In this document: positions 6,066-52,159 of the stretch, piece after piece | Position numbering within the stretch: position 1 is the first letter of the stretch | How the letters are laid out: every line of letters starts with the position of its first letter | Source: an uncultured Rikenellaceae bacterium | Lineage (GTDB): Bacteria; Bacteroidota; Bacteroidia; Bacteroidales; VadinHA17 | Direction: 5' to 3' | Assembly (NCBI GenBank): GCA_964634565.1 | Contig: CAZWLP010000006.1 | Span: 6,242 to 70,241 of the forward strand | DNA: 64,000 bases | Position numbers and translations under genes: made by a program | The notes under the pieces: model-generated | Told to the model about the DNA's origin: nothing | The model's database searches: none | What the model saw: the letters and a program-made list of their open reading frames with translations, nothing else

Positions 6066-8774
6066 TTATTTTATATTCGCCTGTGCTGCTGCCAGCCTTG
6101 CGATAGGAACCCTGAAAGGTGAACAACTGACATAGTCCATACCTACAGAGTCGCAGAATTCAACAGAACTTGGCTCACCACCATGTTCGCCGCATATTCC
6201 AACTTTAAGATTCGGATTTGCTGATCGACCTCTTTCAGTACCCATTCTTACCAGCTGTCCTACACCTTCCTGGTCGAGTACCTGGAAGGGATCGTTCTTA
6301 AGGATTCCTTTTTCGAGATAGACAGGCAGGAATTTGCCGGCGTCATCGCGCGAATATCCGAAAGCCATCTGTGTAAGGTCGTTTGTTCCGAAAGAGAAGA
6401 ACTCAGCAACTTCACCAATTTTATCAGCTGTAAGTGCTGCTCTTGGTATTTCGATCATTGTACCCACCAGGTAGTCTACTTTAATACCTTTTTCCTCAAA
6501 AACCTTATTTGCAGTATCCCTTATAATAGTTTCCTGTAGCTTGTATTCCTCAACTGTTCCAATCAGGGGAACCATTATTTCAGGTTTTGCATCAACTCCT
6601 TGAGATTTCAGGTTACATGCTGCCTCAATAATAGCTCTTGCCTGCATCTCTGTAATTTCAGGGTAGGTGTTACCCAGTCTGCAACCACGGTGACCGAGCA
6701 TAGGGTTAAATTCGTGAAGCGATTCAACTTTTGCTTTTACAGCCTCAGCAGAAATACCCATTTCGGCAGCCATCTCGGCCTGGTTTTCTTCCTCGTGAGG
6801 AACAAATTCATGGAGTGGTGGATCAAGCAAACGAATTGTTACTCCATATCCTGCCATTGCCTTAAGTATCCCTTCAAAGTCATCTCTCTGATAGGGTAGA
6901 AGCTTTTCAAGAGCTTTCCTGCGATCAACTTCATCATCTGCAAGTATCATTTCTCTCATTGCCATTATTCTTTCTCCCTCGAAGAACATGTGTTCGGTAC
7001 GGCAAAGTCCGATACCCTTTGCCCCAAAATTTCTTGCTATCTGTGAGTCATGAGGACTATCGGCATTAGTCCTGACATCCATCCTTGTATATTTGTCAGC
7101 AATCTCCATAATACGTCCGAAATCACCACCAAGTACCGGGTCTATTGTATCTACCTTACCCTTGTATACTTCTCCTGTACTGCCATTAAGTGATATCCAG
7201 TCTCCTTCATAAAATACCATTCCGCCGGCCTTCATTGTCCTGGCCTTATAATCGATATAAATGCCACCGGCACCTGATACACAACATTTACCCATTCCGC
7301 GGGCCACAACTGCTGCATGAGAAGTCATTCCTCCTCTGGCAGTAAGTATGCCCCTTGCTATATTCATTCCTTCCAGATCTTCAGGAGATGTTTCTATTCT
7401 TACAAGAAGAGATTCTTTATATTTTGATGCTTCGTCGGCAAAGAAAACTATACGACCGGTTGCTGCTCCAGGAGAAGCTGGAAGACCTTTTGCTACAGTA
7501 GTTGCCTTCTCTAGAGCTGATTCGGCGAAAACCGGGTGCAATAATTCATCAAGTTTATTTGGTTCCTGGCGAAGCAGGGCCGTTTTCTCATCAATCTTAC
7601 CCTCATCAAGAAGGTCGATTGCAATCTTAACCATTGCTGCGCCGGTTCTTTTCCCGTTTCTTGTTTGAAGCAACCAGAGCTTACCATCCTGTATGGTAAA
7701 CTCCAGATCCTGCATATCGGAATAGTGATTCTCAAGAGTCTTTTGTGTATTAAACAGTTCCTTGTAGACCTCAGGCATAACCTCCTCGAGTGATGGAAAC
7801 TCTTCCCTTCGATCTTCTTCGCTTACATCTGCAAGTAGGGCCCATCTTTTCGATCCTTCAAGAGTTATCTGCTGAGGTGTACGTACCCCTGCAACAACGT
7901 CTTCGCCCTGGGCATCAATCAGGTATTCTCCGTTAAAGATATTTTCTCCGGTACCGGCATCACGTGTAAAGGCAACCCCTGTACCTGAATTTTGTCCCAT
8001 ATTTCCGAATACCATTGCCTGGACATTAACAGCTGTACCCCATTCTTCAGGTATATGGTTAAGCTGGCGGTAATAAATTGCCCTGTCATTCATCCAGCTA
8101 TCAAATACGGCACATACTGATCCCCAAAGCTGTTCCCATGGATCGGCAGGGAAGTCTTTCCCCGTCTTATTTTTTACTGCTTTTTTGAATTTAACTACAA
8201 GATTTTTAAGATCATCAACTGTAAGCTCATTATCGTTCATAACATTTCGCTCCATCTTCATCTCTTCGATGATCTCTTCGAATGGATCAACATCTTCCTT
8301 TGATTCGGGTTTTAATCCCAGTACAACATCACCATACATCTGTACAAATCTTCTGTATGAGTCCCATGCAAACCTTTCGTTACCTGTCTTTTTTATTAGT
8401 CCCTCTACTGAGTCATCATTCATTCCCAGGTTAAGTACTGTATCCATCATCCCTGGCATTGATACCCTGGCTCCTGATCTGACAGAAACCAGACAGGGAT
8501 TGTCCTTGCTGCCAAATTTTGTACCCATAATGGATTCAATATTCGCAATGGCAGCTTCAACTTCATCTTTAAGTAACTCGACTACTTTCTCCTGACCATA
8601 TTTATTATATTCAGTACATACCTCGGTTGTAATAGCAAATCCCGGAGGTACAGGTACCCCTATCAGGTTCATTTCACATAAATTTGCTCCCTTGCCACCC
8701 AGCAGGTTTTTCATCCCTGCATTACCTTCAGCTTTCTTATCGCCGAAAGTGTAAACTCTTTTAACCTTTGACAT
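6066..8774 (-). CDS. ppdK: Pyruvate, phosphate dikinase
   Basis: 902 aa. Carries the phosphohistidine motif GGMTSHAAVVARGMGK and a C-terminal PEP-utilising TIM-barrel domain (FFSFGTNDLTQ). Confidence 0.95.
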   Translation of the reverse strand: MSKVKRVYTFGDKKAEGNAGMKNLLGGKGANLCEMNLIGVPVPPGFAITTEVCTEYNKYGQEKVVELLKDEVEAAIANIESIMGTKFGSKDNPCLVSVRSGARVSMPGMMDTVLNLGMNDDSVEGLIKKTGNERFAWDSYRRFVQMYGDVVLGLKPESKEDVDPFEEIIEEMKMERNVMNDNELTVDDLKNLVVKFKKAVKNKTGKDFPADPWEQLWGSVCAVFDSWMNDRAIYYRQLNHIPEEWGTAVNVQAMVFGNMGQNSGTGVAFTRDAGTGENIFNGEYLIDAQGEDVVAGVRTPQQITLEGSKRWALLADVSEEDRREEFPSLEEVMPEVYKELFNTQKTLENHYSDMQDLEFTIQDGKLWLLQTRNGKRTGAAMVKIAIDLLDEGKIDEKTALLRQEPNKLDELLHPVFAESALEKATTVAKGLPASPGAATGRIVFFADEASKYKESLLVRIETSPEDLEGMNIARGILTARGGMTSHAAVVARGMGKCCVSGAGGIYIDYKARTMKAGGMVFYEGDWISLNGSTGEVYKGKVDTIDPVLGGDFGRIMEIADKYTRMDVRTNADSPHDSQIARNFGAKGIGLCRTEHMFFEGERIMAMREMILADDEVDRRKALEKLLPYQRDDFEGILKAMAGYGVTIRLLDPPLHEFVPHEEENQAEMAAEMGISAEAVKAKVESLHEFNPMLGHRGCRLGNTYPEITEMQARAIIEAACNLKSQGVDAKPEIMVPLIGTVEEYKLQETIIRDTANKVFEEKGIKVDYLVGTMIEIPRAALTADKIGEVAEFFSFGTNDLTQMAFGYSRDDAGKFLPVYLEKGILKNDPFQVLDQEGVGQLVRMGTERGRSANPNLKVGICGEHGGEPSSVEFCDSVGMDYVSCSPFRVPIARLAAAQANIK

Positions 8775-37488: not shown

Positions 37489-38964
37489 ATGAAAAGAATA
37501 ATTATAATAATCAGTTTTATCATAGGGTCATTTGCAGCGCTCAAAGGCCAATATGTTGATGAAGCTTTAAAATACTCACAGTTCTTCTACGGCGGAACAG
37601 CGAGGTTTCAGGCAATGGGAGGAGCGTTTACATCTCTGGGAGGCGACCTTTCGGTGCTTAGTTTGAATCCTGCAGGACTGGGGATGTTCAGATCCACAGA
37701 TGTAAGTTTCACCCCACAGATGTATTTTAATAACTCCACGACTGAATTTGGAGGAGAGATAAGTAAAGATAATGCTTATAACCTGAATATTAATCAATTT
37801 GGGATTGCTACACCGATCAGTAAGGGTGGATCTGGCAGCGGACTTGTTTCGTTAAATTTTGGATATTCATTTTCAGTTACCAATAACTTTAATGGTAATG
37901 CAATAATTAGCGGAAATCTTGGAAGCAGTTCAATGGTCGATTATTTTATGGATAATGCAGAAGGAACCGATTACCTTGATCTTACTGGTACTGAGGGGAT
38001 GGTATTTGATGCATGGATGATTGATACATTAACTAATAATTACAGCTCATATGGTTCAGCATTTTCTAACTATGGAGCCGATGCAAACTCAACATACGGG
38101 CAGGAAGTAAGAAGGATTATATCGTCGGAGGGAAGCAGCAAGGAACATTCGTTAAGCCTGGCGGCTAATTACAGCGATAAGATTTACCTGGGTTTTACTC
38201 TTGGTCTAAGCAGAATATATTCTGTTTACCAGTACGATCATCTGGAGACGGATCGGGAAGATAATATTTACCCTTTTAATCAATTCCAGTATCAGGAATA
38301 CGTTGAAACAGAAGGTAAGGGCTATTCAATTAAGCTTGGTGCTATTATACGGCCAATCGAGTCGCTGAGACTTGGATTTGCTGTTCATTCTCCAACTGTT
38401 TATCGCCTGAATGAGTATTATTATGATTACGTCTACGGGTCAACGGATGATGGACCTTCTATTGAATTTCAGGGCGATGATTTCAGTTTCTCCTATACCC
38501 TGGTTACTCCCTTGAGGATTACTACAGGAGCATCATTACAACTAGGTAAAAGAGGAATAGTCAGTGCTGATTATGAATTTATTGATTATAAGATGGCCAG
38601 GTTCTCAAAACCTTCTGATGATGGTAATTTTGCCAGAGAGAATCAGGATATTAAAAATATATTGGATGTAGCACATAACTTCAGATTTGGTGGTGAGTTC
38701 AGACTAATATCTTCGGTTTATCTGAGAGGGGGATATGCATTATATGGTAGTGGTTTTACAAAGGGTGAAGATAACAGGGATAATTCCTATAATATCCTTT
38801 CCGGCGGTATAGGTATAAGACAGAGTAATTTTTATTTTGATGTTTCATATTCTCTTAGAAGTAATACAGGAGACTATCTGATGTATCAGAATAATAACCT
38901 TGATTTTGCGAGTATCAGTTACGACAGGAGTATGATTACTGCCACAATCGGAATAAAGATGTAA
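37489..38964 (+). CDS. FadL/TodX/PorV-like outer-membrane beta-barrel protein
   Basis: 491 aa with a signal peptide. The N-terminal motif GGTARFQAMGGAFTSLGGDLSVLSLNPAGLG resembles the FadL-family G.RA.G.A...NPA signature. The rest alternates in a Tyr/Gly/Ser-rich strand pattern. Confidence 0.5.
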   Translation: MKRIIIIISFIIGSFAALKGQYVDEALKYSQFFYGGTARFQAMGGAFTSLGGDLSVLSLNPAGLGMFRSTDVSFTPQMYFNNSTTEFGGEISKDNAYNLNINQFGIATPISKGGSGSGLVSLNFGYSFSVTNNFNGNAIISGNLGSSSMVDYFMDNAEGTDYLDLTGTEGMVFDAWMIDTLTNNYSSYGSAFSNYGADANSTYGQEVRRIISSEGSSKEHSLSLAANYSDKIYLGFTLGLSRIYSVYQYDHLETDREDNIYPFNQFQYQEYVETEGKGYSIKLGAIIRPIESLRLGFAVHSPTVYRLNEYYYDYVYGSTDDGPSIEFQGDDFSFSYTLVTPLRITTGASLQLGKRGIVSADYEFIDYKMARFSKPSDDGNFARENQDIKNILDVAHNFRFGGEFRLISSVYLRGGYALYGSGFTKGEDNRDNSYNILSGGIGIRQSNFYFDVSYSLRSNTGDYLMYQNNNLDFASISYDRSMITATIGIKM

Positions 38965-39660: not shown

Positions 39661-40407
39661 TTATAATCTGTTAATTATACTGGCATTAAATCCGGCGCCA
39701 AAGCCATTGTCGATATTAACTACACTGACTCCCGATGCACAACTTGTAAGCATTGCCAGCAGAGCCGATACACCATTAAAATTTGCTCCATAGCCAACGC
39801 TTGTGGGAACTGCTATAACCGGAGCATCCACCAGGCCGCCTACAACACTAGCCAGTGCTCCTTCCATGCCTGCAATAACCACTATTACCTTACTTTCCCT
39901 TATCTGTGGTAATTTATCAACAAGCCTGTGTATGCCGGCTACTCCGGCATCATAAAACCTGTTCACCCTGTTACCAAGCAGCTCAGCAGTAACAGCAGCT
40001 TCTTCTGCTATAGGATGGTCTGATGTGCCTGCCGTTATAATCGCGATTGGCTTCTCCTGTATTTTAGTTTCTTTATTTACGACGCTAATAATTCTGGCAT
40101 CTTCGTACCAGACTGCAGAAGGAATTACTTCCTTTACAGAATCAAATTTTTCACGGTCTGCCCTGGTTCCGATAATATTGTCGCCATGTTCGGAAATATG
40201 TTCAAAAATTCCCTTTACCTGTTTTATGGATTTCCCTTCGCAATAGACAATTTCAGGATACCCTGTTCTGAGTTCACGGTGATGATCGATCTTTGCATAG
40301 CCCAGGTCTGAGTATGGGAAGTGTTTTAATCTTTCCAGTGCTTCATCGATTGAAAGCTTATCTTCTTTTACTTCAACGAGTAATTTTTGCAGTATATTCT
40401 TATCCAT
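39661..40407 (-). CDS. larB: LarB, pyridinium-3,5-biscarboxylic acid mononucleotide synthase (PurE-like)
   Basis: 248 aa with a PurE/AIR-carboxylase-like core IAIITAGTSDHPIAEEA and GMEGALASVVGG. Confidence 0.85.
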   Translation of the reverse strand: MDKNILQKLLVEVKEDKLSIDEALERLKHFPYSDLGYAKIDHHRELRTGYPEIVYCEGKSIKQVKGIFEHISEHGDNIIGTRADREKFDSVKEVIPSAVWYEDARIISVVNKETKIQEKPIAIITAGTSDHPIAEEAAVTAELLGNRVNRFYDAGVAGIHRLVDKLPQIRESKVIVVIAGMEGALASVVGGLVDAPVIAVPTSVGYGANFNGVSALLAMLTSCASGVSVVNIDNGFGAGFNASIINRL

Positions 40408-40421
40408 CCTTCAAGTATTTT

Positions 40422-41225
40422 TTATTTATCTCTGATAATATTAAGACTACCCATTTTATATCCCTCCATATCAAGTGTAATATGCTTAATACCAAGCTCT
40501 TTAAGTCTGCTTATAATTACAGATCTTACTTTATTTTTATTTATTTCTTCTATATATTTCGGATAGCATTCCAGTCTGGCTATATCACCATGAAGTCTCA
40601 CCCTGGTACCGGCGAATCCCAGGTCCTTAATAAATAACTCGGCCTGTTCAATTATATAGAGCATTTTTTCGTCAACTTCGGTGTCGTGAGGAATCCTTGT
40701 CAGAAGGCAGGCATAAGCGGGTTTATTCCATATTTCAAGTTCCCAGCTTTTCAGTTGTTCTCTTATTTCTTCTTTTGTAATCCCCGATTTTATCAGAGGG
40801 CTAAGTATCTTAAGCTCATCAAGGGCTCTTATACCTGGCCTGTAGTCGCTAAGATCATCAGCATTACTGCCATCCACAATAATATTGAATTGATTTTCCC
40901 CGGCGTAATTTTTTATTTCAGAAAACAGTACCTTCTTACATCTGTAGCACCTGTCATGTGGATTTGAAATAATTGACCGGGGGAAGGGCAAATCAACTAC
41001 TTTATGTTCAATATTATACTCCTGGCAGAAACTTATTGCTTCATCTACCTCCCATTGAGGTATATAAGGTGTTTTTACTGTGAGTGCTCTGACTTTAAGC
41101 TTAAATATTCTGGCTATGGTATAAAGAAGAAAAGTACTGTCGACACCACCTGAAAATGCAAGTAATATACGATCAGACTGACTAAACAATCCTTTTAATT
41201 TTCCTATCTTCTTATCTATTGTCAA
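40422..41225 (-). CDS. larE: LarE, ATP-dependent sacrificial sulfur transferase
   Basis: 267 aa with the PP-loop AFSGGVDSTFLL and the candidate sacrificial Cys in PAYACLLTRIP. Confidence 0.85.
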   Translation of the reverse strand: MTIDKKIGKLKGLFSQSDRILLAFSGGVDSTFLLYTIARIFKLKVRALTVKTPYIPQWEVDEAISFCQEYNIEHKVVDLPFPRSIISNPHDRCYRCKKVLFSEIKNYAGENQFNIIVDGSNADDLSDYRPGIRALDELKILSPLIKSGITKEEIREQLKSWELEIWNKPAYACLLTRIPHDTEVDEKMLYIIEQAELFIKDLGFAGTRVRLHGDIARLECYPKYIEEINKNKVRSVIISRLKELGIKHITLDMEGYKMGSLNIIRDK

Positions 41226-41227
41226 TA

Positions 41228-42400
41228 TTAGTTGTTTTTAGCCGATTCCATAACAATCCTGAAGACCTCCTTGATAGGGATATTATTTTGTAGAGAGATT
41301 TTAATGCAATCATTATATTCAGGTTTAGCAGAAACCATTTTACCCTCGTAAAAGCCATATTTCATTGTAATCTCTCCAATGGGGGTAATAATCTTTTTAA
41401 ATTGTCTTTCAAGAGATAACTTTTCGACTGGCAATATTCTTAATCCCAGAGTAGTAGAGTGTGTAAATAAAATCTGTTTTACTTTTTCAATACTTTCATT
41501 AAAAGATAAAACAGAAACCTTTGTTCCTGGTCGTCCCTTTTTCATAATAATCTGAGTAAGAAAAACATCTGAGGCTCCTGCTTCAAGCAGTCTCTCCGTT
41601 AAGGAATCATACCACTCAGGGTTCATATCATCTATATTGCACTCCAGCAATGAAGATTTGTCTCCACCTGTTTTTTCTTCAGATTCTTCTCCCAGATGTA
41701 CTCTTAGAATATTTGGTCTGGACTCATTAACCTTGTGCCCGATACCATATCCCGAGGAAGAAATAGTCATCCTGTTCTCTATGTTGAAAACATCTCCAAG
41801 GGTTTTAACAATTGTTGCTCCTGTAGGAGTGGTTGCTTCAAAGTCAACACCTCCGGTAGAAACGGGTATGTCTTTAATTATTTCGGCTGTAGCAGGTGCC
41901 GGGACAGGAAGATTGCCATGAGCGCATTTAACAAATCCACCACCCAGTTCCAGTCTGGAAATAATTACCCTGTCGACATTTAATTTATGATAACAGATAG
42001 CAGCCCCAACTATGTCGATAATTGAATCTATTGCCCCAACTTCGTGAAAGTGAATTTTTTCCTTACTCGTATTATGGACCTTTGCTTCTGCTTCAGCTAC
42101 CAGGTCAAACATAAGCATGCTTGTCAGCTTAACCTTATTGTCGAGCTTACTATCAGTAATAATCCTGGCTATATCAGAAAGATGTCTGTGTGATTTATCT
42201 TCTTTTGTCTGTTTTACAGTTACTTTCGTCCCAAAAATACCGTGTCTCTGGTCTTTTTCTACAATTAATTCCCAACCATCAAGATTGAGTTTGTTTAATT
42301 CATTTATTAAATACATGCTATCAATCCCAAGATCAATCATTGCAGCAAGGTTCATATCCCCGCTTATCCCGGAGAAACAATCATAGTATAGAATTTTCAT
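41228..42400 (-). CDS. larC: LarC, nickel insertase for the nickel-pincer nucleotide cofactor (DUF111)
   Basis: 390 aa with the N-terminal MKILYYDCFSGISGDM motif. It is a single unsplit polypeptide. Confidence 0.85.
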   Translation of the reverse strand: MKILYYDCFSGISGDMNLAAMIDLGIDSMYLINELNKLNLDGWELIVEKDQRHGIFGTKVTVKQTKEDKSHRHLSDIARIITDSKLDNKVKLTSMLMFDLVAEAEAKVHNTSKEKIHFHEVGAIDSIIDIVGAAICYHKLNVDRVIISRLELGGGFVKCAHGNLPVPAPATAEIIKDIPVSTGGVDFEATTPTGATIVKTLGDVFNIENRMTISSSGYGIGHKVNESRPNILRVHLGEESEEKTGGDKSSLLECNIDDMNPEWYDSLTERLLEAGASDVFLTQIIMKKGRPGTKVSVLSFNESIEKVKQILFTHSTTLGLRILPVEKLSLERQFKKIITPIGEITMKYGFYEGKMVSAKPEYNDCIKISLQNNIPIKEVFRIVMESAKNN

Positions 42401-42523
42401 AATGCAGATGTTATAAAACTGGTGCTAATATAGCACTATGCTTACGAATATGAATAAAAATATTGTATTTTGCGTGCAGTATAGACGATGCCATTGCGGG
42501 CTTAGAATTTTTAATTATTGAAT

Positions 42524-43444
42524 ATGAAAAGGAGAGATTTCTTAAAAAAGTCGGTGAGTGCAGGCCTTGTTGCAGGTGTAGCATATAAGGTTGGTGGATA
42601 TAATAATCTTTATGGATCAACACCATCGTTGCAGCTTCCGGATCTTGTTGCAGTAATGGGAGGAAGCCCTGATGCAATGTTTGATAAAGGTATCAGTGCA
42701 CTCGGAGGTATGACAAATTTTGTAAAAAAAGACCAGACGGTTGTTATAAAACCAAATATGGCATGGGATCGTACACCGGAGATAGGGGCTAATACAAATC
42801 CTGTACTTATCGGGAGGATTGTTGAGCATTGCCTCAAAGCAGGAGCTAAAAGAGTTTATGTATTTGATAATGCAACCCACAACTGGGTAAAAGCATATAA
42901 GACATCAGGGATAGAGAAAGCTGCAAAATCGGCTGGTGCAAGGATGGTTCCGGGTGATTCAGAAAGTTATTACCAGGAAGTATCCATTAAGGGAGCAAAG
43001 GTTTTGAAAACAACCAAGGTTCATGAATTGATTCTTGAGTCGGATGTATTTATAAATGTACCTGTACTGAAGCATCATTCTTCAACGAAGATGACGGCAT
43101 CATTAAAGAACCTGATGGGAGCTGTATGGGACAGGAAGTGGTGGCATTCTAATAATCTTCATCAGTGTATTGCAGATTTTGGCCTCTTTGAAAAGAAGCC
43201 AGCATTAAATGTTATCGACTGTTATAATGTTATGATGAGAAACGGACCACAGGGAGTATCGGTGGCAGATGTTGTAAATATGAAGGCTCAGATCTTATCT
43301 GCTGATATGGTTGCAGCAGATTCAGCCGCAGCGATGATGATTAAGAAGGAACCCGGGCAGATTGATTATATTCCTCTTGCATATGAGTTGGGTATTGGAG
43401 AAATGGATCTGTCGCGTTTGCAGATCAATAGGATATCAATGTAA
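42524..43444 (+). CDS. Tat-exported DUF362 domain protein
   Basis: Start taken at the ATG at 42524. It has the twin-arginine signal MKRRDFLKKSVSAGLVAGVA. The DUF362-like body (VVIKPNMAW...LKHHSSTKMT) is a memory-based assignment. Only 3 Cys residues are present and no Fe-S motif. Confidence 0.6.
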   Translation: MKRRDFLKKSVSAGLVAGVAYKVGGYNNLYGSTPSLQLPDLVAVMGGSPDAMFDKGISALGGMTNFVKKDQTVVIKPNMAWDRTPEIGANTNPVLIGRIVEHCLKAGAKRVYVFDNATHNWVKAYKTSGIEKAAKSAGARMVPGDSESYYQEVSIKGAKVLKTTKVHELILESDVFINVPVLKHHSSTKMTASLKNLMGAVWDRKWWHSNNLHQCIADFGLFEKKPALNVIDCYNVMMRNGPQGVSVADVVNMKAQILSADMVAADSAAAMMIKKEPGQIDYIPLAYELGIGEMDLSRLQINRISM

Positions 43445-43456
43445 ATATGCCGGCAA

Positions 43457-45040
43457 ATGAATAGTCCTCTTTTAAAAAAGATCAGGTTTCTGCTTGCTTT
43501 ACTGGTCTTAGTGTTATTTATCCTCTCGTTTATAGATTTTAGATATTTACTCCCCGAGAAGTGGTTTGGGATATTACTATATCTGCAATTTACTCCATCG
43601 CTGCTTAAATTTATGGATGCTCCTTCAATTCTTGCAAGCGGATTTATAGTTGTAGCTGCACTAACTGTTTTTACCGGCCGATCCTATTGTTCCTTTCTTT
43701 GTCCCCTGGGTATCCTTCAGGATGCAATAAGCAGGGCCGGTGGAAAAGTTAAACGTCGCAACAGAAGGTATGGATTTAAGAAGCCACATACTATTTTAAG
43801 GTATTTGTTACTGGCTATTACTCTGATTGTAGCTCTCTCAGGATCAATACACCTGATAGCTCTTTTAGATCCCTATAGTATTTTTGGAAGGTTTGTAACG
43901 TATTTTTTTCAACCACTTATAGTTACTCTTAATAATATTGTTGCATGGATTGCCACTAAGTTTGATTACTATGAAATTTTTAAGGTTGAGTATATTAAGA
44001 TACCTCTGATTGTATATCTGATACCCCTTCTTTTCCTGGTTTTGGTTTCCTATATGTCTTTTACCAGGGGAAGGTTGTACTGCAATACCTTATGTCCTGT
44101 TGGTACACTTCTTGGACTCCTGTCCAAGGTGTCTGTTTTCAGGATTACTATTGATAAGCAATCCTGTACTCATTGTGGAAGATGTGCCATTAATTGTAAG
44201 GCCTCCTGCATTGATTTTCTGAATGAGGATATTGATGAAAGCAGATGTGTAACATGTTTTAATTGTCTTACGGTTTGTCCTGATAATGCAATTAAATATG
44301 GTTTGCCCGTGAGAATAAAGAATAAGCCCGTGGTGACTGAGAAAGTTGATTCGTCTAAGCGCAGGTTTATTGCAGGTTCAATAGGCGCTCTCGCTGCTGC
44401 TACTGGTGTTGCCAGGGCGCAGGATGTGCCTGCCAATAAGGAAGCACCTGTTCCGACCAAGGAATCGACCGTTAAGGAAAATAAAACATACCCCGTATGT
44501 CCGTATGGTGCAGTAAGTCTGGAACATTTCAATTCATATTGTACTGCATGTTCGCTTTGCATAAATGCTTGCCCTGAGCAGGTTATAGTGCCGTCATTTA
44601 TGGAATACGGTCTGGCCGGTATTATGCAGCCAAGGATGGATTATCATAAGAGCTTCTGCAATTTTGATTGCACCAGGTGTACAGATATTTGTCCGACAGG
44701 TGCTCTCCTGCCTCTGACAGTAGAAGCTAAAAAGCTTACTCAGATTGGGAAAGTCACCTTTATTAAGGAGAACTGTATAGTTGAGACAGAGAGAACTGAC
44801 TGCGGTGCATGTTCTGAACATTGTCCTACAAAGGCAGTTTACATGGTCCCTTTTAAGGGTAACCTCGTTATTCCGGAGGTTAATAATAAGCTATGTGTAG
44901 GATGTGGTGCATGTGAATATGCATGCCCGACAAAACCTTTTAAGGCAATTTTTGTTGATGGCAATCCAATACACCTCGATGCAGAAAAACCTGCATCTGA
45001 GTCATTGAAAGTTGAAAAGATGGAAGAATTTCCATTCTAG
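43457..45040 (+). CDS. Membrane polyferredoxin, NapH-like N-terminal half fused to NapG-like C-terminal half
   Basis: 527 aa. The hydrophobic N-terminal region carries two CX3CP motifs (CSFLCPLG, CNTLCPVG) and two CxxCxxCxxxCP clusters. An internal twin-arginine-like hydrophobic segment (SSKRRFIAGSIGALAAATGVARA) is followed by four more Cys clusters. Confidence 0.7.
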   Translation: MNSPLLKKIRFLLALLVLVLFILSFIDFRYLLPEKWFGILLYLQFTPSLLKFMDAPSILASGFIVVAALTVFTGRSYCSFLCPLGILQDAISRAGGKVKRRNRRYGFKKPHTILRYLLLAITLIVALSGSIHLIALLDPYSIFGRFVTYFFQPLIVTLNNIVAWIATKFDYYEIFKVEYIKIPLIVYLIPLLFLVLVSYMSFTRGRLYCNTLCPVGTLLGLLSKVSVFRITIDKQSCTHCGRCAINCKASCIDFLNEDIDESRCVTCFNCLTVCPDNAIKYGLPVRIKNKPVVTEKVDSSKRRFIAGSIGALAAATGVARAQDVPANKEAPVPTKESTVKENKTYPVCPYGAVSLEHFNSYCTACSLCINACPEQVIVPSFMEYGLAGIMQPRMDYHKSFCNFDCTRCTDICPTGALLPLTVEAKKLTQIGKVTFIKENCIVETERTDCGACSEHCPTKAVYMVPFKGNLVIPEVNNKLCVGCGACEYACPTKPFKAIFVDGNPIHLDAEKPASESLKVEKMEEFPF

Positions 45041-45172: not shown

Positions 45173-45586
45173 ATGGAACCAACGCATATTGAACACATTG
45201 GTATAGCCGTAAAATCGCTCGATGAGGCTATCCCATTTTATGAGAATATTTTTGGTCTTAAATGCTACAATATTGAGGAGGTAAGAGACCAAAAGGTGAA
45301 GACCGCATTTTTTAAAATAGGCGACACCAAGATTGAATTACTGGAATCAACAGATCCTGATGGACCAATAGGTAAGTTTATCGAGAAAAGAGGAGAAGGA
45401 ATACACCATATGGCCTTTGCCGTTAAGGATATTAATAGTAAGCTTGCAGAGGTAGAGCTGAAAGGAGTTAGGCTGATCGACAGGGAGGCGCGCTCTGGAG
45501 CAGAAGGACTTGATATAGGCTTCCTGCATCCAAAGTCAACTTTTGGTGTACTTACAGAGCTTTGTGAAGATAATTCAGGTAAATAG
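45173..45586 (+). CDS. mce: Methylmalonyl-CoA epimerase (VOC/glyoxalase fold)
   Basis: 137 aa with IEHIGIAV...G.GIHHMAF...HPKS motifs. It lies directly upstream of the decarboxylase genes. Confidence 0.8.
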
Positions 45587-45603
45587 AAATAATCTTTAGT
45601 CAG

Positions 45604-47163
45604 ATGAGTAGTCAGGATAAAATAAATCAACTTATTGATCTTCGGGAGCAAGCCAAACTGGGCGGTGGTCTGAAAAGGATAGAGTCACAGCATAAAAAAG
45701 GAAAATTAACTGCCAGAGAAAGGATTGATATTCTTCTTGATGAGGGTAGTTTTGAGGAATTTGACATGTTTGTTAAACACCGGACTGAAGATTTTGGACT
45801 GGGTGACAAGAAATTCCTTTCAGATGGTGTTGTAACAGGTCATGGCACTATTGATGGAAGGGTAGTTTACATTTTTTCGCAGGATTTTACCGTTTTTGGA
45901 GGCTCTCTTTCCGAAACCTTTGCAGCTAAAATTTGTAAAATAATGGATCAGGCAATGAAGGTTGGAGCACCTGTAATTGGAATTAATGATAGTGGCGGTG
46001 CAAGAATACAGGAGGGTGTAAGGAGTCTGGCCGGATATGCCGAGATATTTGAACGTAATATTATGGCATCGGGTGTAATACCACAAATATCAGCTATTTT
46101 CGGTCCATGCGCAGGAGGTGCAGTATATTCGCCAGCTCTTACTGATTATATTATTATGAGCGAGGAGAGCAGCTATATGTTCGTTACCGGCCCAAAAGTC
46201 ACTAAAACAGTTACAGGAGAAGAGATATCAATAGAAGATCTGGGTGGTGCAAGGGTTCACTCAACAAAATCTGGTGTAGCTCATTTTGTTTCTGAAGATG
46301 AGGAAGAAGGTTTATTATTAATCAGAAAACTCCTGAGTTATTTGCCTCAGAATAATCTGGAGGATCCACCTCTTTCGGATTGTAATGATCCTATAGACCG
46401 ACTGGAGGATGATCTGAATCTAATTATTCCGGAAAATACGAATCAACCTTACAATGTAAAAGATATAATATATAAGATTGTTGATAATGAAGAATTTCTG
46501 GAGGTACACGGTAATTATGCAAAAAATATTATTGTGGGACATGCCAAGTTTGATGGTATGTCGGTTGGCATAATTGCTAACCAGCCTAACTTTCTTGCCG
46601 GGGTACTGGATATAGAGGCATCGAGAAAAGCTGCAAGGTTTGTAAGATTCTGCGACGCTTTTAATATACCATTGGTTACCCTGGTTGATGTTCCTGGCTT
46701 TTTACCAGGTAGTAATCAGGAATATGGCGGAATTATTATTCATGGAGCCAAACTGATGTTTGCATATGGAGAGGCTACTGTCCCAAAGATTACAATTACC
46801 CTGCGTAAATCATATGGAGGTGCCCACTGTGTTATGTCATCAAAGCAACTTAAGGGAGATATTAATTATGCATGGCCTTCTGCAGAAATAGCAGTAATGG
46901 GCCCTCGTGGGGCAATTGAAGTACTTGAGGGTAAGAAAATTAGTGAGATTGAGAACCCGGAAGAAAGGGCTAAGTACGTTGCTGAGAAGGAGGAGGAATA
47001 CCGCGATAAATTTGCAAATCCATATGAGGCAGCTAAATTCGGATTTCTTGATGACGTGATTGAACCAAGAAATACACGCTTCAGGATAATAAGGGCTCTT
47101 AGAACACTTACAACAAAGAAAGATCCACTGCCTTTGAAAAAGCATTCAAATATACCTTTATAG
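45604..47163 (+). CDS. mmdA: Methylmalonyl-CoA decarboxylase alpha subunit (acyl-CoA carboxyltransferase)
   Basis: 519 aa of the carboxyl_trans family ([25 protein letters not shown]), sitting next to the membrane and biotin subunits. Confidence 0.8.
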
Positions 47164-47173
47164 AGCAGAATCT

Positions 47174-47545
47174 ATGAATACAGCATTATTACTTATACCC
47201 GCCGCATTCTCGGGCATCAATAAAGAGGCCGGCATTATTGTTTTGATCGGATACCTTATCGTCTTTATTGCTCTTATAGTACTTTACCTTGTGTTCAGAT
47301 ATATGGTGCCGCTTATTCTTAAGATTAAGCTATACAGAAGGGCTGCAAGGGAGGGCAGACACCTTGATGAATCTGAAAAAACTCAAATGACAGGTGCGGT
47401 TAATGCTGCAATTGCAACAGCTCTTTACCTTTATTTTAACGAACAACATGATGTTGAGAGCAACATTATAACAATAAGGAAAGTTTCCAGGGCATATTCA
47501 CCTTGGAGCTCAAAAATACATAGTATGAAAAACCTTCAACGTTAA
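47174..47545 (+). CDS. OadG/MmdD-like small membrane subunit of the Na+-translocating decarboxylase
   Basis: 123 aa with a single N-terminal transmembrane helix. The call rests on its position between the alpha and biotin-carrier subunits. Confidence 0.6.
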   Translation: MNTALLLIPAAFSGINKEAGIIVLIGYLIVFIALIVLYLVFRYMVPLILKIKLYRRAAREGRHLDESEKTQMTGAVNAAIATALYLYFNEQHDVESNIITIRKVSRAYSPWSSKIHSMKNLQR

Positions 47546-47555
47546 CCAGGGATTA

Positions 47556-47975
47556 ATGAAGAATTATAAATTTACTATCAGTGGACATACTTACGAGGTC
47601 GATATCCTTGATTTTGAAGGAGATCTGGCTAAGATCGAAGTAAACGGAACACCATATATGGTTGAAATTCATCAGCAGGTAAAGCATCAAAAAACTCCTA
47701 CTCTTGTAAGGCCTGTTATGAAAGAACCTAATAAATCTATTGAAAAGAAAGAGGGATCTACCAGGCTTGCTATTAAGGCTCCTCTTCCTGGTATTATCCT
47801 TGAACTGTCTGTTAAAGAGGGGGACATGGTTAAGAAAGGCCAGAAGCTTGCAGTAATGGAAGCAATGAAAATGGAAAACGAGATAAAGGCAGAGAAGGAT
47901 GGGGAGATAGTTTCTGTTAAAATAAGTCAGGGACAATCTGTTCTGCAGGATGAAGTGTTAATCGAAATAGGCTGA
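47556..47975 (+). CDS. Biotin carboxyl carrier subunit (MmdC-like)
   Basis: 139 aa with the biotinyl-lysine motif EAMKMENEI. Confidence 0.85.
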   Translation: MKNYKFTISGHTYEVDILDFEGDLAKIEVNGTPYMVEIHQQVKHQKTPTLVRPVMKEPNKSIEKKEGSTRLAIKAPLPGIILELSVKEGDMVKKGQKLAVMEAMKMENEIKAEKDGEIVSVKISQGQSVLQDEVLIEIG

Positions 47976-47977
47976 TA

Positions 47978-49315
47978 ATGAAGAGGTTTATTACTGTCAT
48001 TGCGATCCTTAGTGTTTTAAGTATAACATGGACTGCTTTTGTAAAGCCGGAAAAAGACTCTAACAGGGATAATCTTTCGCAAAAAGTTGAAAATGTATCT
48101 GCAGGCTCACAGGAATTAGAAAAGGATAGTCCTGGCTTATCAGGTTTAAAGAAATTCTGGGATTATTCCGGATTCAGGAATGCTACCCGCGGACACCTGA
48201 TAATGATAGTGGTGGGTTTGTTCTTTATTTTTCTTGCCATAAAGTATGACTATGAACCCTTATTGCTTATCCCTATTGGTACGGGAATACTGATAGGGAA
48301 TATCCCCTTTTATCAGGATGGAGGTTATAATCTGCAGCTTGGCATATATCAAAGTGGTAGTGTAATGAACTACCTTTACTTTGGGGTATTAAAAGGGGTA
48401 TACCCTCCATTGATATTCCTTGGCATAGGGGCTATGACCGACTTTTCATCTCTTTTATCCAATCCCAGGCTTATGATCCTTGGAGCTGCGGCACAGATTG
48501 GTATATTTATTACATTTCTGGGGGCCCTGCTTTTTGGCTTTGCGCCACCTGAGGCAGGTGCAATTGGAATTATCGGGGGAGCCGATGGCCCTACTGCTAT
48601 ATTTCTTTCATCAAGGCTGGCTAATGGTGTAAACATTCTTGCAGATGGTACTACTGTGAAGAACCTGATTGCCCCAATAGCTATTGCAGCATATTCCTAT
48701 ATGGCTCTTGTACCTGTTATTCAGCCGCCAATAATGAGGCTGCTTACAACTAAGAAGGAACGATTGATCAGGATGAAGCCTCCAAGGCAGGTTTCTAAAG
48801 TAGAAAAGATAATATTCCCGATAATAGGTTTGCTCTTAACCGCATTTATTTCGCCCAGCTCACTGCCATTGCTTGGTATGTTGTTTTTTGGGAATCTTTT
48901 GAAAGAGTCGGGCGTAACAAAGCGACTGGCAGAGACAGCCAGGACCTCAATGGTTGATATTGTAACAATATTACTTGGTATAACTGTTGGTGCATCTACG
49001 CAGGCAGATATTTTTCTGACTCCTGACTCCATGTTTATCTTTGCGCTGGGAGCAGTTTCTTTTGTTATAGCAACAGCAGGTGGATTGATTTTTGCCAAAT
49101 TTATGAATATATTCCTGAAAGGTGATAATAAGATTAATCCTCTTGTTGGAGCCGCAGGAGTATCTGCAGTGCCGGATGCTGCCAGGGTAGTACAGAATGA
49201 AGGATTAAAGGCTGATCCAACCAATCATCTGCTTATGCATGCAATGACTCCTAATGTGGCAGGTGTAATTGGCTCGGCAGTTGCTGCTGGTATTTTATTA
49301 AGTTTCCTTGGATAA
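47978..49315 (+). CDS. mmdB: Na+-translocating decarboxylase beta subunit (OadB/MmdB family)
   Basis: 445-aa polytopic membrane protein with OAD_beta-type motifs (GAMTDFS, GGADGPT, AAGVSAVP). Confidence 0.85.
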   Translation: MKRFITVIAILSVLSITWTAFVKPEKDSNRDNLSQKVENVSAGSQELEKDSPGLSGLKKFWDYSGFRNATRGHLIMIVVGLFFIFLAIKYDYEPLLLIPIGTGILIGNIPFYQDGGYNLQLGIYQSGSVMNYLYFGVLKGVYPPLIFLGIGAMTDFSSLLSNPRLMILGAAAQIGIFITFLGALLFGFAPPEAGAIGIIGGADGPTAIFLSSRLANGVNILADGTTVKNLIAPIAIAAYSYMALVPVIQPPIMRLLTTKKERLIRMKPPRQVSKVEKIIFPIIGLLLTAFISPSSLPLLGMLFFGNLLKESGVTKRLAETARTSMVDIVTILLGITVGASTQADIFLTPDSMFIFALGAVSFVIATAGGLIFAKFMNIFLKGDNKINPLVGAAGVSAVPDAARVVQNEGLKADPTNHLLMHAMTPNVAGVIGSAVAAGILLSFLG

Positions 49316-49360
49316 ACCCTTGCTATTAGCTAGGTTTGGAATATTCTCAAAGAGATATCT

Positions 49361-50581
49361 ATGAAAAATAATGTTTCCATAACAGGTAATTCCGGCCCAA
49401 AGGTAAGATCTGATTGCGAGGTCAGACTGGTTATTTCAGGTAATAAAGAAAATATAATTCAGATAGAATCAAAGGTTTCATCCATGTATGGACGATCGAT
49501 AAAGTCCATTATCGAAGATATATTTAAGTATTATAGTATTACCGGAGCCGAACTAAGTATTAATGATAAAGGAGCACTGCCATTTGTGATTGCTGCGAGG
49601 GTAGAGGCTGCAATAAAGGAGTGTATTGATACAGATAAGGAGTATCTGCCAGAGATGATTCCTGAAAATCTATATAGTTCCGATTATTCGCGTTATCGCT
49701 TTAGCCGTCTTTATCTTCCAGGCAATACTCCAAGTATGATGTTAAATGCCGGCTTGCACTCTCCTGATGGAATAATACTGGACCTGGAAGATTCAGTTGC
49801 TCCGGAAAAGAAAAATGAGGCCAGGTACCTTGTAAGAAACGCACTTAGATCTCTTAATTTTTATGGGGTGGAGCGTATGGTAAGAATTAACCAGGGTGAA
49901 ATGGGTCTTTCAGACCTTAAGTATATTGTTCCACATAATGTACACCTGATACTGGTTCCTAAATGTGAAAGTGCTGAATATATATCCGGGCTGGAGGAAG
50001 AAATAGACCGTATCAGGAAAAAAAATAGTATTAAGAATAAAATTTTCCTGATGCCAATACTTGAGAGTGCGCTGGGAATTGAAAAGGCTTTTGAAATCGC
50101 TGTGGCCAGTAAGAATGTTGTTGCCCTTGCTATAGGGCTTGAAGATTATACAGCAGATATTGGTGTTCAGAGAACAAATAGCGGAGAAGAGTCATTATAT
50201 GCCAGAATGAAACTGGTAAATGCTGCCAAAGCTGCTGGAGTTCAGCCTATAGATTCAGTATTTTCTGATGTTTCAGATATGGATGCCCTGAAAGAAAATG
50301 TACTCAGGTCAAAAGCACTGGGTTTTGAAGGTATGGGATGTATTCACCCTCGCCAGATAAATGTAATACAAAGGGCATTTGCTCCGGATTCTGAAGAGAT
50401 AGAGAAAGCATCGAGGATAGTTAATGCCTTTAGAGAAGCAGAAAAACAGGGCTTAGGCGTGGTAGCGCTCGGATCTAAGATGATTGATCCTCCCGTTGTA
50501 AAAAGAGCAATAAGAACCATCACTCTTGCTGAAAAACTAAGCCTGTTACCTGAGGATTGGAAAACTAAGTATAACGATTAA
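49361..50581 (+). CDS. Citrate lyase acyl-carrier (CitD) domain fused to citryl-CoA lyase beta subunit (CitE)
   Basis: 406 aa. The N-terminal roughly 95 aa are CitD-like (...RSDCEVRL...NDKGALPFVIAARVEAA). The remainder belongs to the HpcH/CitE family (LYLPGNTPSMM...ILDLEDSVAP...GFEGMGCIHPRQ). Confidence 0.75.
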   Translation: MKNNVSITGNSGPKVRSDCEVRLVISGNKENIIQIESKVSSMYGRSIKSIIEDIFKYYSITGAELSINDKGALPFVIAARVEAAIKECIDTDKEYLPEMIPENLYSSDYSRYRFSRLYLPGNTPSMMLNAGLHSPDGIILDLEDSVAPEKKNEARYLVRNALRSLNFYGVERMVRINQGEMGLSDLKYIVPHNVHLILVPKCESAEYISGLEEEIDRIRKKNSIKNKIFLMPILESALGIEKAFEIAVASKNVVALAIGLEDYTADIGVQRTNSGEESLYARMKLVNAAKAAGVQPIDSVFSDVSDMDALKENVLRSKALGFEGMGCIHPRQINVIQRAFAPDSEEIEKASRIVNAFREAEKQGLGVVALGSKMIDPPVVKRAIRTITLAEKLSLLPEDWKTKYND

Positions 50582-50602
50582 CTTCCTTATTGTATATTTG
50601 TT

Positions 50603-52159
50603 ATGAGCACAAAACTTGTTAAGAATGCGCTTGGAAGAATGGTTGTAAGCGAGCTAAACGGAGAGGTAGCCATTCCCTTTCAGGGTGTAGGTAAATATCG
50701 GCCGGATAGTTACAAACATGCACCGAAGATATCAAGCTGTGCCGATTTTCCGCTCGACGGCAATAAACAGGTGAAATCAATCAGGGAAGCACTTAAAAAA
50801 AGTGGTTTAAAAGATGGTATGACAATATCTACCCATCATCATTTCAGAAATGGAGATCTTGTTGCAAATATGGTTTTTGATGCAGTTAAGGAATTGGGAG
50901 TTAAAGATATAAGATGGTTTCCTTCTGCCTCTTTTCCATGTCATGAACACCTGATACAATATCTGGAAGACGGAACTATTCATCATATCGAGGGAAGCAT
51001 GAATGGCCCACTGGGTAAATATGTTTCTGAAGGCAGGATGAAGGGAACAGGTGTTCTCCGGTCACACGGAGGAAGATACCAGTCGGTCCAGGATGGAGAG
51101 GTGAAGATAGATATTGCCATTATTGGGGCCCCTGCAGCCGATCCATTCGGCAATGCAAATGGATTGCAGGGGGAATCGGCATGTGGATTGCTGGGATTTG
51201 CCCTGGCTGACTCGCAGTATGCTGATAAGGTTATTATTGTTACTGATAATCTGGTAGATTTTCCCTGCATACCCTGGCAGATACAGGGAAATTATGTTGA
51301 TTATACCGTAGTGGTCGACAAGATTGGGATTCCGGATAGAATAATATCGGGCACAACAGTAATTACCAGGTCGCCCGACAGGTTGTTGCTTGCAGAGATG
51401 ACAGCCAGGTTTTGTGATGAAGCCGGTATAATAAAGGATGGATTTTCATTTCAGAGCGGGGCAGGAGGGACCTCTCTTGCTGTAGGTGAATTTTTTAAGG
51501 AGATAATGAAGAAGAAAGGCATTAAAGCCAGGTTTGCCAGAGGAGGAAGTAATAAGTACCTTGTATCGATGCTTGAAGAGGGTCTGGTAGATTATATACT
51601 GGATGGTCAGACCTTTGACCTGGATGGCGTAACTTCAATGGCTAATAATCCTGATCATGTGTGGACAAGCCCGTTTACCAGTTATAATTACCATGGTAAG
51701 GGTAATTTTGCCGGTATGGTTGATGTTGTTATACTTGGAGCAACAGAAGTTGATGTTAATTTCAATGCCAATGTTGTTACACATTCTGATGGTTATCTTT
51801 TGCACGGAATAGGTGGATGGCAAAATTGTCTTTTTTCCAAAACAGTTATACTTCCGCTTCCTCTTTTCAGGGATAGAATACCTGTTGTAATTGATGAGGT
51901 AACAACTCTGTGTGGTCCCGGAGAATTAATTGATGTAATTGTTACAGAAAGAGGCATTGCTATTAACCCACGGAGGAAGGATCTCCTGGAAAAACTTAAG
52001 GATTCAGATCTGCCACTTAAGACAATAGAAGAACTTAAAGAAGAGGCCGAAAGGATATGTGGTAAGCCTGAGAAGGCTGATCTTTCAGACGACATAATAG
52101 CTGTTGTTAAATGGGTGGATGGTACAATAATTGACGTTGTAAGACGTGTTACTGTTTAA
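50603..52159 (+). CDS. citF: Citrate lyase alpha subunit (citrate CoA-transferase)
   Basis: 518 aa. Length and motifs (ISTHHHFRNGD, FQSGAGGTSLAV) are as in CitF. Confidence 0.8.
   Translation: MSTKLVKNALGRMVVSELNGEVAIPFQGVGKYRPDSYKHAPKISSCADFPLDGNKQVKSIREALKKSGLKDGMTISTHHHFRNGDLVANMVFDAVKELGVKDIRWFPSASFPCHEHLIQYLEDGTIHHIEGSMNGPLGKYVSEGRMKGTGVLRSHGGRYQSVQDGEVKIDIAIIGAPAADPFGNANGLQGESACGLLGFALADSQYADKVIIVTDNLVDFPCIPWQIQGNYVDYTVVVDKIGIPDRIISGTTVITRSPDRLLLAEMTARFCDEAGIIKDGFSFQSGAGGTSLAVGEFFKEIMKKKGIKARFARGGSNKYLVSMLEEGLVDYILDGQTFDLDGVTSMANNPDHVWTSPFTSYNYHGKGNFAGMVDVVILGATEVDVNFNANVVTHSDGYLLHGIGGWQNCLFSKTVILPLPLFRDRIPVVIDEVTTLCGPGELIDVIVTERGIAINPRRKDLLEKLKDSDLPLKTIEELKEEAERICGKPEKADLSDDIIAVVKWVDGTIIDVVRRVTV

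Follow-up and report, generated by a model that had tools for sequence, protein, structure and literature searches.

In this study, we describe two adjacent forward-strand genes in a 64,000-nucleotide stretch of DNA (the window) from an uncultured Rikenellaceae bacterium (contig CAZWLP010000006.1 of assembly GCA_964634565.1), one of them encoding a DUF362 protein with a twin-arginine translocation (Tat) signal and the other a polytopic membrane polyferredoxin; a lar operon, for a cofactor called nickel-pincer nucleotide (NPN), runs away from them on the opposite strand. The two genes very probably form a Tat-dependent periplasmic redox module. To the more specific reading, in which the DUF362 protein is a LarA-like enzyme that is loaded with the nickel-pincer cofactor, exported by Tat and wired to the quinone pool, we give roughly an even chance. 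New in our analysis are the obligate pairing of DUF362 with the polyferredoxin and the proposal that an exported DUF362 protein is a nickel-pincer enzyme; the polyferredoxin family, of which the window protein is a new member, and the ordinary lar genes were already known.

The gene pair and the divergent lar operon

The genes and regions of the locus are the following, with the evidence for each in parentheses.

42524-43444, forward strand: gene of the Tat-exported DUF362 protein, 306 amino acids (aa), LarA-like fold, proposed periplasmic catalytic subunit (PF04015, AlphaFold 2 model, Foldseek matches in the PDB)
42524-42628, forward strand: twin-arginine signal peptide region, residues 1-35, RR at residues 3-4 (motif in the sequence; predicted local distance difference test score, pLDDT, below 50)
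43457-45040, forward strand: polytopic polyferredoxin gene, 527 aa, NapH-NapG fusion of the dual Sec/Tat-targeted PFD family (Fer4_5 twice, several Fer4 families; collinearity with the MLMS-1 PFD)
42401-42523, no strand: shared intergenic region of 123 nt between the divergent larC and DUF362 genes (coordinates; no Rfam match)
41228-42400, reverse strand: larC, nickel-inserting cyclometallase, fused LarC1 and LarC2 (TIGR00299, 205 bits, cut-off 90; NF052512, 141.6 bits, cut-off 50)
40422-41225, reverse strand: larE, sulfur insertase of the CXXC-C ([4Fe-4S]) type (TIGR00268, 270 bits, cut-off 150; SGGVDS, C93xxC96 and C173)
39661-40407, reverse strand: larB, nicotinic acid adenine dinucleotide carboxylase/hydrolase (NF033503, 300 bits, cut-off 175)

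Both open reading frames of the pair are as the original prediction had described them. The DUF362 gene has an ATG start (MKRRDFLKK..., with an alternative TTG start at 42518), and 12 nt separate its TAA stop (43442-43444) from the ATG of the polyferredoxin gene at 43457. Its product matches PF04015 with an E-value of 2.3e-49 and 168.6 bits, against a gathering cut-off of 24, over profile positions 1-199 of 200. The sequence K-R-R-D-F-L-K-K at residues 2-9 belongs to a region with the motif, the hydrophobic stretch and the conservation of a Tat signal peptide: its RR is invariant in close relatives, and RRxhh occurs within the first 40 aa in 110 of 127 diverse DUF362 relatives (31-53% identity). 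We saw no clear AxA cleavage site in the signal region. These features support the Tat signal claimed for this protein, and the DUF362 protein is the obvious periplasmic partner.

The scan of species-representative genomes yielded 80 loci, distributed over Bacteroidales, Prolixibacteraceae, Ignavibacteria/Melioribacter, Opitutales, Desulfobacterales and Competibacteraceae, and a polyferredoxin gene directly follows DUF362 in all 71 of those that have at least 1.7 kb of downstream sequence. For the metagenome loci, obtained in a scan seeded with a Nitrospirota-type DUF362, adjacency was found in 53 of the 56 that have enough flanking DNA; in two metagenome loci (L155 and L158) the polyferredoxin gene lies upstream of DUF362, so that the order is changed and the adjacency kept. 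The polyferredoxin partner is retained even by DUF362 relatives that share as little as about 35-40% identity. A DUF362 gene also lies directly upstream of the homologues of the MLMS-1 polyferredoxin in a Nitrospiraceae genome and in Desulfurivibrio alkaliphilus AHT2, which is closely related to the organism of the PFD study. This pairing is far beyond chance, and the neighborhood survey upholds the coupling of the two genes that had been predicted. An exception is a Candidatus Contendobacter scaffold (L170), where DUF362 (7001-7906) is followed by unrelated genes on the opposite strand, with no polyferredoxin or lar gene nearby, an arrangement that differs from that of its Competibacteraceae and Chromatiaceae relatives. 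We found no description of the pairing in the literature searched; the paper on the PFD family (PMC5449189) studied biogenesis alone and contains zero mentions of DUF362. Among the carriers is a cultivable human gut species, Parabacteroides distasonis (L181, NZ_OY725750.1, 118059-120596), whose pair is annotated only as "DUF362 domain-containing" and "4Fe-4S dicluster domain-containing". We found no lar genes within 9 kb of that pair, and our plasmid searches returned one Parabacteroides copy of the pair, with no lar genes nearby, and no Parabacteroides LarC record.

The larC, larE and larB genes are divergent from the DUF362 gene, about 123-124 nt upstream of it, and all three products score above the NCBIfam equivalog cut-offs; by these family assignments, they are a complete NPN pathway. 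NCBIfam labels the window LarE as a "sacrificial sulfur transferase", yet it has the CXXC-C motif that marks the catalytic, [4Fe-4S]-dependent type known from Thermotoga maritima (PMC9283937). We detected no homologue of LarA anywhere in the window, its genes nearest to the pair included, or across the first 80 loci. In that first set, tblastn detected lar genes in 39 of the 80 loci and in 28 of the 49 with good flanks; nearly all of these loci are of the Bacteroidales/Rikenellaceae type, some of them without larE, and share a block composed of FadL-like, WbqC-like, larB, larE and larC genes on one side and of DUF362, PFD and methylmalonyl-CoA epimerase genes on the other. An independent gene order occurs in Gammaproteobacteria, where one Competibacteraceae and one Chromatiaceae genome have a compact, co-directional DUF362-PFD-larC-larE-larB operon; in the Competibacteraceae genome, larC starts 6 nt after the stop of the polyferredoxin gene, and the cluster is followed by polA.

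LarA likeness of the DUF362 protein

The DUF362 protein has exactly three cysteines (C103, C215 and C233) and no cluster motif, and neither its sequence nor Pfam reveals an iron-sulfur, haem or molybdenum cofactor motif. On the cysteines the original prediction was right; in calling the cofactor unknown, however, it missed the divergent lar operon and the LarA-like fold, which together provide a concrete cofactor hypothesis. The AlphaFold 2 model of the protein has a pLDDT of 86.4, with the signal region (residues 1-35) disordered. When this model was compared with the PDB in Foldseek, all 19 matches at E<=1e-3 were LarA-family nickel-pincer enzymes, 5HUQ, 2YJG, 6D6Z/7S91, 9EIA, 9Q3J and 4NAR among them (E 3.6e-6 to 6.5e-4, 242-283 aligned columns, query-normalized template modeling score 0.39-0.53), and the next matches followed only at an E-value of about 1e-2. 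As modeled, the DUF362 protein has the LarA fold, and DUF362 and LarA_N belong to the same Pfam clan, CL0471 (PMC11770544). In sequence comparisons, Pfam reported PF04015 only, with no match to PF09861 (LarA_N), searches of PDB sequences (phmmer with the protein, hmmsearch with its profile) gave chance matches only and no LarA, and hhalign of an alignment of close DUF362 relatives, which has too little diversity, against a single LarA gave nothing.

The residue comparison used LarA profiles built from PDB chains and nine plasmid-borne larA genes, with the Lactobacillus plantarum LarA sequence checked against 5HUQ and the numbering and roles of the site residues taken from PMC12611868. There, His174 is catalytic, Lys184 is the cofactor tether and His200 is a nickel ligand (PMC12611868). 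Residues conserved in at least 93% of the 127 full-length DUF362 relatives include K76-P77-N78, K183, H185, K195, N196, G199, H208 and D232, and one stretch concentrates the candidate counterparts of the LarA site.

43076-43147, forward strand: His185-x9-Lys195...His208 stretch, candidate counterpart of LarA His174/Lys184/His200 (conservation and profile alignments)

In each of the four profile-profile alignments, none of which is significant alone, H185 falls opposite His174 and K195 (95% conserved) opposite Lys184, with the same nine-residue spacing in both families. Of the remaining candidates, N78 is opposite the ribose-binding Asp72 in both long alignments (3- and 12-sequence), H208 (93% conserved) is opposite His200 in the 3-sequence alignment and not in the 12-sequence one, and R83 is opposite Arg75 only in the 12-sequence alignment, T84 taking that place in the 3-sequence alignment.

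With the LarA superfamily (DUF2088, PDB 5HUQ), the DUF362 protein has in common the fold, the clan and, in the borderline profile alignments, a His-x9-Lys at the position of His174/Lys184, and its gene adjoins larB, larC and larE. It differs in being about 150 residues shorter, in having no PF09861 match and no conserved equivalent of LarA His108, and in being Tat-exported and obligatorily paired with an iron-sulfur electron carrier, a pairing that suggests net redox chemistry and not racemization.

The DUF362 family is large, with 7,342 relatives (cluster representatives, E<=1e-3) found in a profile search of 1.84 billion representatives. Elsewhere, DUF362 domains are fused to CBM9 and dockerin modules, which might, as a speculation, hint at carbohydrate-derived substrates; longer relatives that looked like fusions had no informative extra domain and were set aside as probably mis-called starts. 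The window protein also has a sub-threshold match (E 7.8e-16) to NCBIfam NF052623, the cyanobacterial Npun_F2552 family. Cyanobacteria have been reported to make NPN without LarA, and this family, of which we found no mention in the literature searched, may be a client of the cofactor.

Architecture and family of the polyferredoxin

Within the polyferredoxin gene, we distinguish the following elements; TM1 to TM5 are its predicted transmembrane segments.

43688-43705, forward strand: first CX3CP motif, C78-P83 (C78SFLCP), predicted cytoplasmic loop after TM2 (invariant in 73 orthologues)
44081-44098, forward strand: second CX3CP motif, C209-P214 (C209NTLCP), after TM4 (invariant in 73 orthologues)
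44165-44278, forward strand: predicted cytoplasmic-side pair of [4Fe-4S] motifs, C237-C274, with conserved C251 (Fer4_21/Fer4_10 at residues 230-280; cysteines invariant)
44351-44419, forward strand: internal twin-arginine motif K301-R302-R303-F304 and weakly hydrophobic TM5 (orthologue conservation, hydropathy, MLMS-1 alignment)
44540-44926, forward strand: NapG-like domain, four [4Fe-4S] motifs, C362-C490, predicted periplasmic (Fer4 families, partial NapG/NapF matches; 16 cysteines invariant)

These elements confirm the earlier description of the 527-aa protein as a NapH-NapG fusion with two CX3CP motifs, two plus four cluster motifs and an internal twin-arginine segment. It is important to note, however, that this architecture, presented then as uncharacterized, is not new. 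Tooke et al. (2017) described the PFD of the delta proteobacterium MLMS-1 (Q1NSB0) as a polytopic NapH-NapG fusion, in a family with five transmembrane domains (TMDs) and a conserved twin-arginine motif directly before the weakly hydrophobic TMD5 (PMC5449189). In BLASTP against MLMS-1 PFD residues 1-364, taken from the supplement of that paper, residues 41-312 of the window protein align with 45-351 (27% identity, E 4e-18), collinear through the RR motif, with KRRFIAGS opposite GRRRLLGA. Judged from this alignment and its motifs, the window polyferredoxin belongs to the PFD family. Both proteins have five hydrophobic segments, two CX3CP motifs, cytoplasmic clusters, a twin-arginine motif before a weak fifth segment and a four-cluster C-terminal domain; the window protein is nonetheless a distant Bacteroidales member, with K-R-R where MLMS-1 has R-R-R.

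Conservation among the 73 orthologues is high, with 29 of the 30 cysteines invariant and the remaining one, C348, present in 29%. Three of the C-terminal four-cysteine groups are CxxCxxCxxxC, and the third group consists of C440, C449, C452 and C456. On the simple Kyte-Doolittle scale (the PFD study used a delta-G predictor; PMC5449189), TM1 to TM4 span residues 9-27, 55-73, 117-135 and 180-198 and exceed a value of 1.3, below which the fifth segment (residues 305-321) stays; R319 lies after the hydrophobic core of this segment. The loop after TM2 (residues 80-112) is strongly basic, with nine Lys/Arg. Hydropathy and charge bias together fit a NapH topology followed by a Tat-type segment, and with the MLMS-1 homologue they bear out, as a prediction, the periplasmic location that had been proposed for the C-terminal ferredoxin domain.

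The internal segment, SSKRRFIAGSIGALAAATGVARA (residues 299-321), had been taken for a fossil of a gene fusion. Every one of the 73 orthologues has [KR]R-x-F-[ILV] or its RK variant before the fifth hydrophobic segment (RR in 37, KR in 34, RK in 2). In the MLMS-1 PFD, with which the segment is collinear, reporters fused after TMD5 were exported, the Tat-dependent export was abolished when RR was changed to KK, and weak hydrophobicity of TMD5 was required for the hand-over from Sec to Tat (PMC5449189). Because a NapH-type topology is here followed by a Tat-type segment that is Tat-dependent in a homologue, the internal motif is best read as a working Tat signal and not as a fossil. An A-R-A|Q sequence that closes TM5 (44405-44422) looks like a place where signal peptidase would cut and so free the periplasmic domain; it is not conserved among orthologues.

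Compared with NapGH of Escherichia coli and Wolinella succinogenes, the window protein has a NapH-like membrane part (four transmembrane segments, two CX3CP motifs and two clusters) and a NapG-like, presumably Tat-dependent part with four cluster motifs and a twin-arginine motif before them, and shares the presumed path of electrons from quinol to a periplasmic enzyme. It differs in that both parts are fused in one chain, that no napA, napB or napC genes accompany it and that its partner is DUF362 and not a molybdoenzyme. Its NCBIfam matches to NapH (E 9e-26), NapF and NapG are partial and sub-threshold: for NapH (TIGR02163 and NF007013) it scores 87.9 and 90.6 bits against cut-offs of 213 and 234, and for NapG (TIGR00397 and NF007012) 44.7 and 45 bits against 179 and 269.

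Proposed mechanism, competing explanations and meaning

We propose that the DUF362 protein would be a trimmed LarA relative that binds NPN in the cytoplasm, probably via Lys195, before it is exported in folded form by Tat. Cytoplasmic loading would explain the use of Tat by a protein that has no other cofactor motif, and Tat export in turn implies a cofactor that is loaded in the cytoplasm. The polyferredoxin would be inserted by Sec (TM1-4) and by Tat (TM5), leaving both CX3CP motifs and the first two [4Fe-4S] clusters on the cytoplasmic side and its four-cluster NapG-like domain in the periplasm, where this domain would contact the DUF362 protein and, via the NapH-like part, connect its active site to the menaquinone pool for electron transfer. 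Electrons might flow in either direction: the pair could oxidize a periplasmic substrate as a dehydrogenase linked to quinone, or reduce it as a reductase driven by quinol. A hydroxy-acid or sugar-like substrate is plausible by analogy with LarA enzymes, which use 2-hydroxy acids (PMC11770544), and with NphT, which acts on sugars (PMC13524815).

NphT, an NPN-dependent hydride transferase of the aldo-keto reductase fold, was likewise found because its gene adjoins larBCE where larA is missing, and sets a precedent for the use of NPN by enzymes other than LarA that have a conserved Lys and His (PMC13524815); unlike the pair described here, it is a cytoplasmic TIM barrel with no iron-sulfur partner. 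MsrPQ (YedYZ) resembles the pair in that a Tat-exported, cofactor-bearing periplasmic enzyme is fed from the quinone pool through a dedicated membrane partner, and differs in that its components, a molybdopterin enzyme and a dihaem membrane protein, are unrelated in sequence; in Tooke et al., it is cited as the split counterpart of the other family of fused proteins (PMC5449189).

Several observations weigh against a nickel-pincer enzyme wired to the quinone pool, and they concern the distribution of the lar genes, the residues and chemistry of DUF362, and the polyferredoxin. With respect to distribution, the whole 12-kb block is syntenic in Bacteroidales, so that its loci count as roughly one evolutionary event. 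Lar genes are within reach of the pair in none of the 89 Nitrospirota/Desulfobacterota-type loci (none of the 20 with good flanks), and, in the surroundings of the locus, they do not adjoin it in Desulfurivibrio, the Nitrospiraceae genome, Ignavibacteria, Prolixibacteraceae or P. distasonis. These absences favor the strongest alternative, which we hold to be somewhat unlikely: the pair would be a periplasmic redox module in which DUF362 has another cofactor or none, and lar would be a neighbor by inherited synteny, serving a client elsewhere in the genome. The co-conservation of FadL-like, WbqC-like and methylmalonyl-CoA epimerase genes with lar in Bacteroidales, the two loci (L032 and L054) that retain WbqC without lar, and a LarA residue alignment that is not significant alone point the same way. 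This alternative must nevertheless accommodate the different and very compact arrangement in Gammaproteobacteria, which contains these five genes only, together with the LarA-like fold and its conserved His-x9-Lys at the matching place; no LarA was found nearby, and a Tat substrate with no recognizable cofactor motif would still need explaining.

At the level of residues, the best DUF362-LarA profile score is 21.7 (E 0.057), and the best of 30 column-shuffled controls reached 24.6. Since this score lies below that of the best shuffled controls, we claim no sequence-level proof for the residue equivalences, which agree with the fold match and are, as a borderline case, unproven by sequence statistics. 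The proposed nickel-ligand equivalence of H208 varies between alignments, and LarA His108 has no conserved counterpart in DUF362, where that region has D115, and His at the variable positions 116 and 119; LarA homologues with a single catalytic His are known (PMC12611868). With respect to chemistry, NPN is known only as a hydride carrier, and its coupling to one-electron iron-sulfur clusters is without precedent. In an improbable alternative, DUF362 would, like LarA, racemize or epimerize a periplasmic substrate with NPN and without net redox turnover, and the polyferredoxin would only supply it with occasional electrons that keep or restore the active state of an oxidation-sensitive cofactor. 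All characterized LarA-fold enzymes are racemases or epimerases (PMC11770544, PMC13524815), NPN holoproteins have been described as labile (PMC11796402), and one LarA catalytic His position is kept; the second one, His108, is not, however, and a multi-cluster, quinone-linked membrane protein that is strictly adjacent across phyla would be a heavy investment for maintenance alone.

As for the polyferredoxin, KR takes the place of RR before TM5 in about half of the orthologues, and its AlphaFold model (pLDDT 48) was too poor for fold comparison and was not used. It is established for Tat substrates that four iron-sulfur clusters cannot be assembled after Sec translocation. It is therefore very improbable that the internal segment is a dead napH-napG relic inserted as an ordinary Sec helix, beside a DUF362 terminal oxidoreductase whose cofactor would be wholly unknown: the NapH-plus-NapG architecture and the KR of 34 of the 73 orthologues would fit such a relic, but a basic pair followed by x-F-[ILV] is retained in all 73, the segment is weakly hydrophobic, as the hand-over requires, and changing RR to KK abolished export in the homologous protein (PMC5449189).

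Other genes surround the locus. A WbqC-like gene (PF08889, 39001-39654, reverse strand), on the same strand as larB and starting 6 nt after it, accompanies lar in 31 of 33 loci and adjoins DUF362 in the two lar-less loci L032 and L054. Upstream of the lar block, and co-conserved with it in 28 loci, a forward-strand gene (37489-38964) encodes a 491-aa signal-peptide protein with a weak UPF0164 match, probably an outer-membrane beta-barrel. Downstream of the pair, a forward-strand run (45173-52159) encodes methylmalonyl-CoA epimerase, a carboxyltransferase, small membrane and biotin-carrier subunits, an OadB-like pump subunit and citrate lyase (a fusion of the acyl carrier protein and beta subunits, and CitF); these products look like a sodium-pumping methylmalonyl-CoA decarboxylase and a citrate lyase, and the run, although syntenic in many Bacteroidales loci, is probably unrelated to the pair. 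In twelve lar-less loci (L016, L036, L038, L043, L044, L052, L062, L064, L068, L069, L073 and L075), a divergent gene about 650 nt upstream of DUF362 encodes a multi-pass membrane protein of about 173 aa, with no Pfam match, which might be a transporter tied to the module. Conserved neighbors in the distant, Nitrospirota/Desulfobacterota-type clade (amidase, phosphoglycerate mutase and electron transfer flavoprotein genes) were infrequent and gave no functional hint. The window has no Rfam match, and scanning it for promoters and terminators gave results no better than chance.

In the literature up to 2026, the known scaffolds that use NPN are LarA homologues, the aldo-keto reductase NphT and an ornithine cyclodeaminase that uses a dinucleotide form (PMC13524815), and about 15% of genomes have larBCE without larA (PMC11796402). 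The locus described here offers a candidate client, with a LarA fold and a kept His/Lys pair, beside larBCE in two gene orders, and the published E. coli co-expression system is suitable for a direct test of cofactor loading by DUF362. It also provides a partner for a polyferredoxin family that has been studied so far only as a model of Sec/Tat insertion. We put forward only tentatively, as rather less than an even prospect, that Tat-exported DUF362 proteins are a new class of nickel-pincer enzymes, the first known outside the cytoplasm and also the first whose pincer cofactor trades electrons with the quinone pool and a chain of iron-sulfur clusters. If this were true, NPN would perform net respiratory redox chemistry instead of an internal hydride shuttle, and the large DUF362 family, including its Npun_F2552-like branch, could explain part of the NPN-making genomes that lack LarA. 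Its confirmation would mean that nickel-pincer chemistry is coupled to the respiratory chain in common anaerobes, whose human gut relatives among the carriers of the pair include P. distasonis, a possible experimental host.

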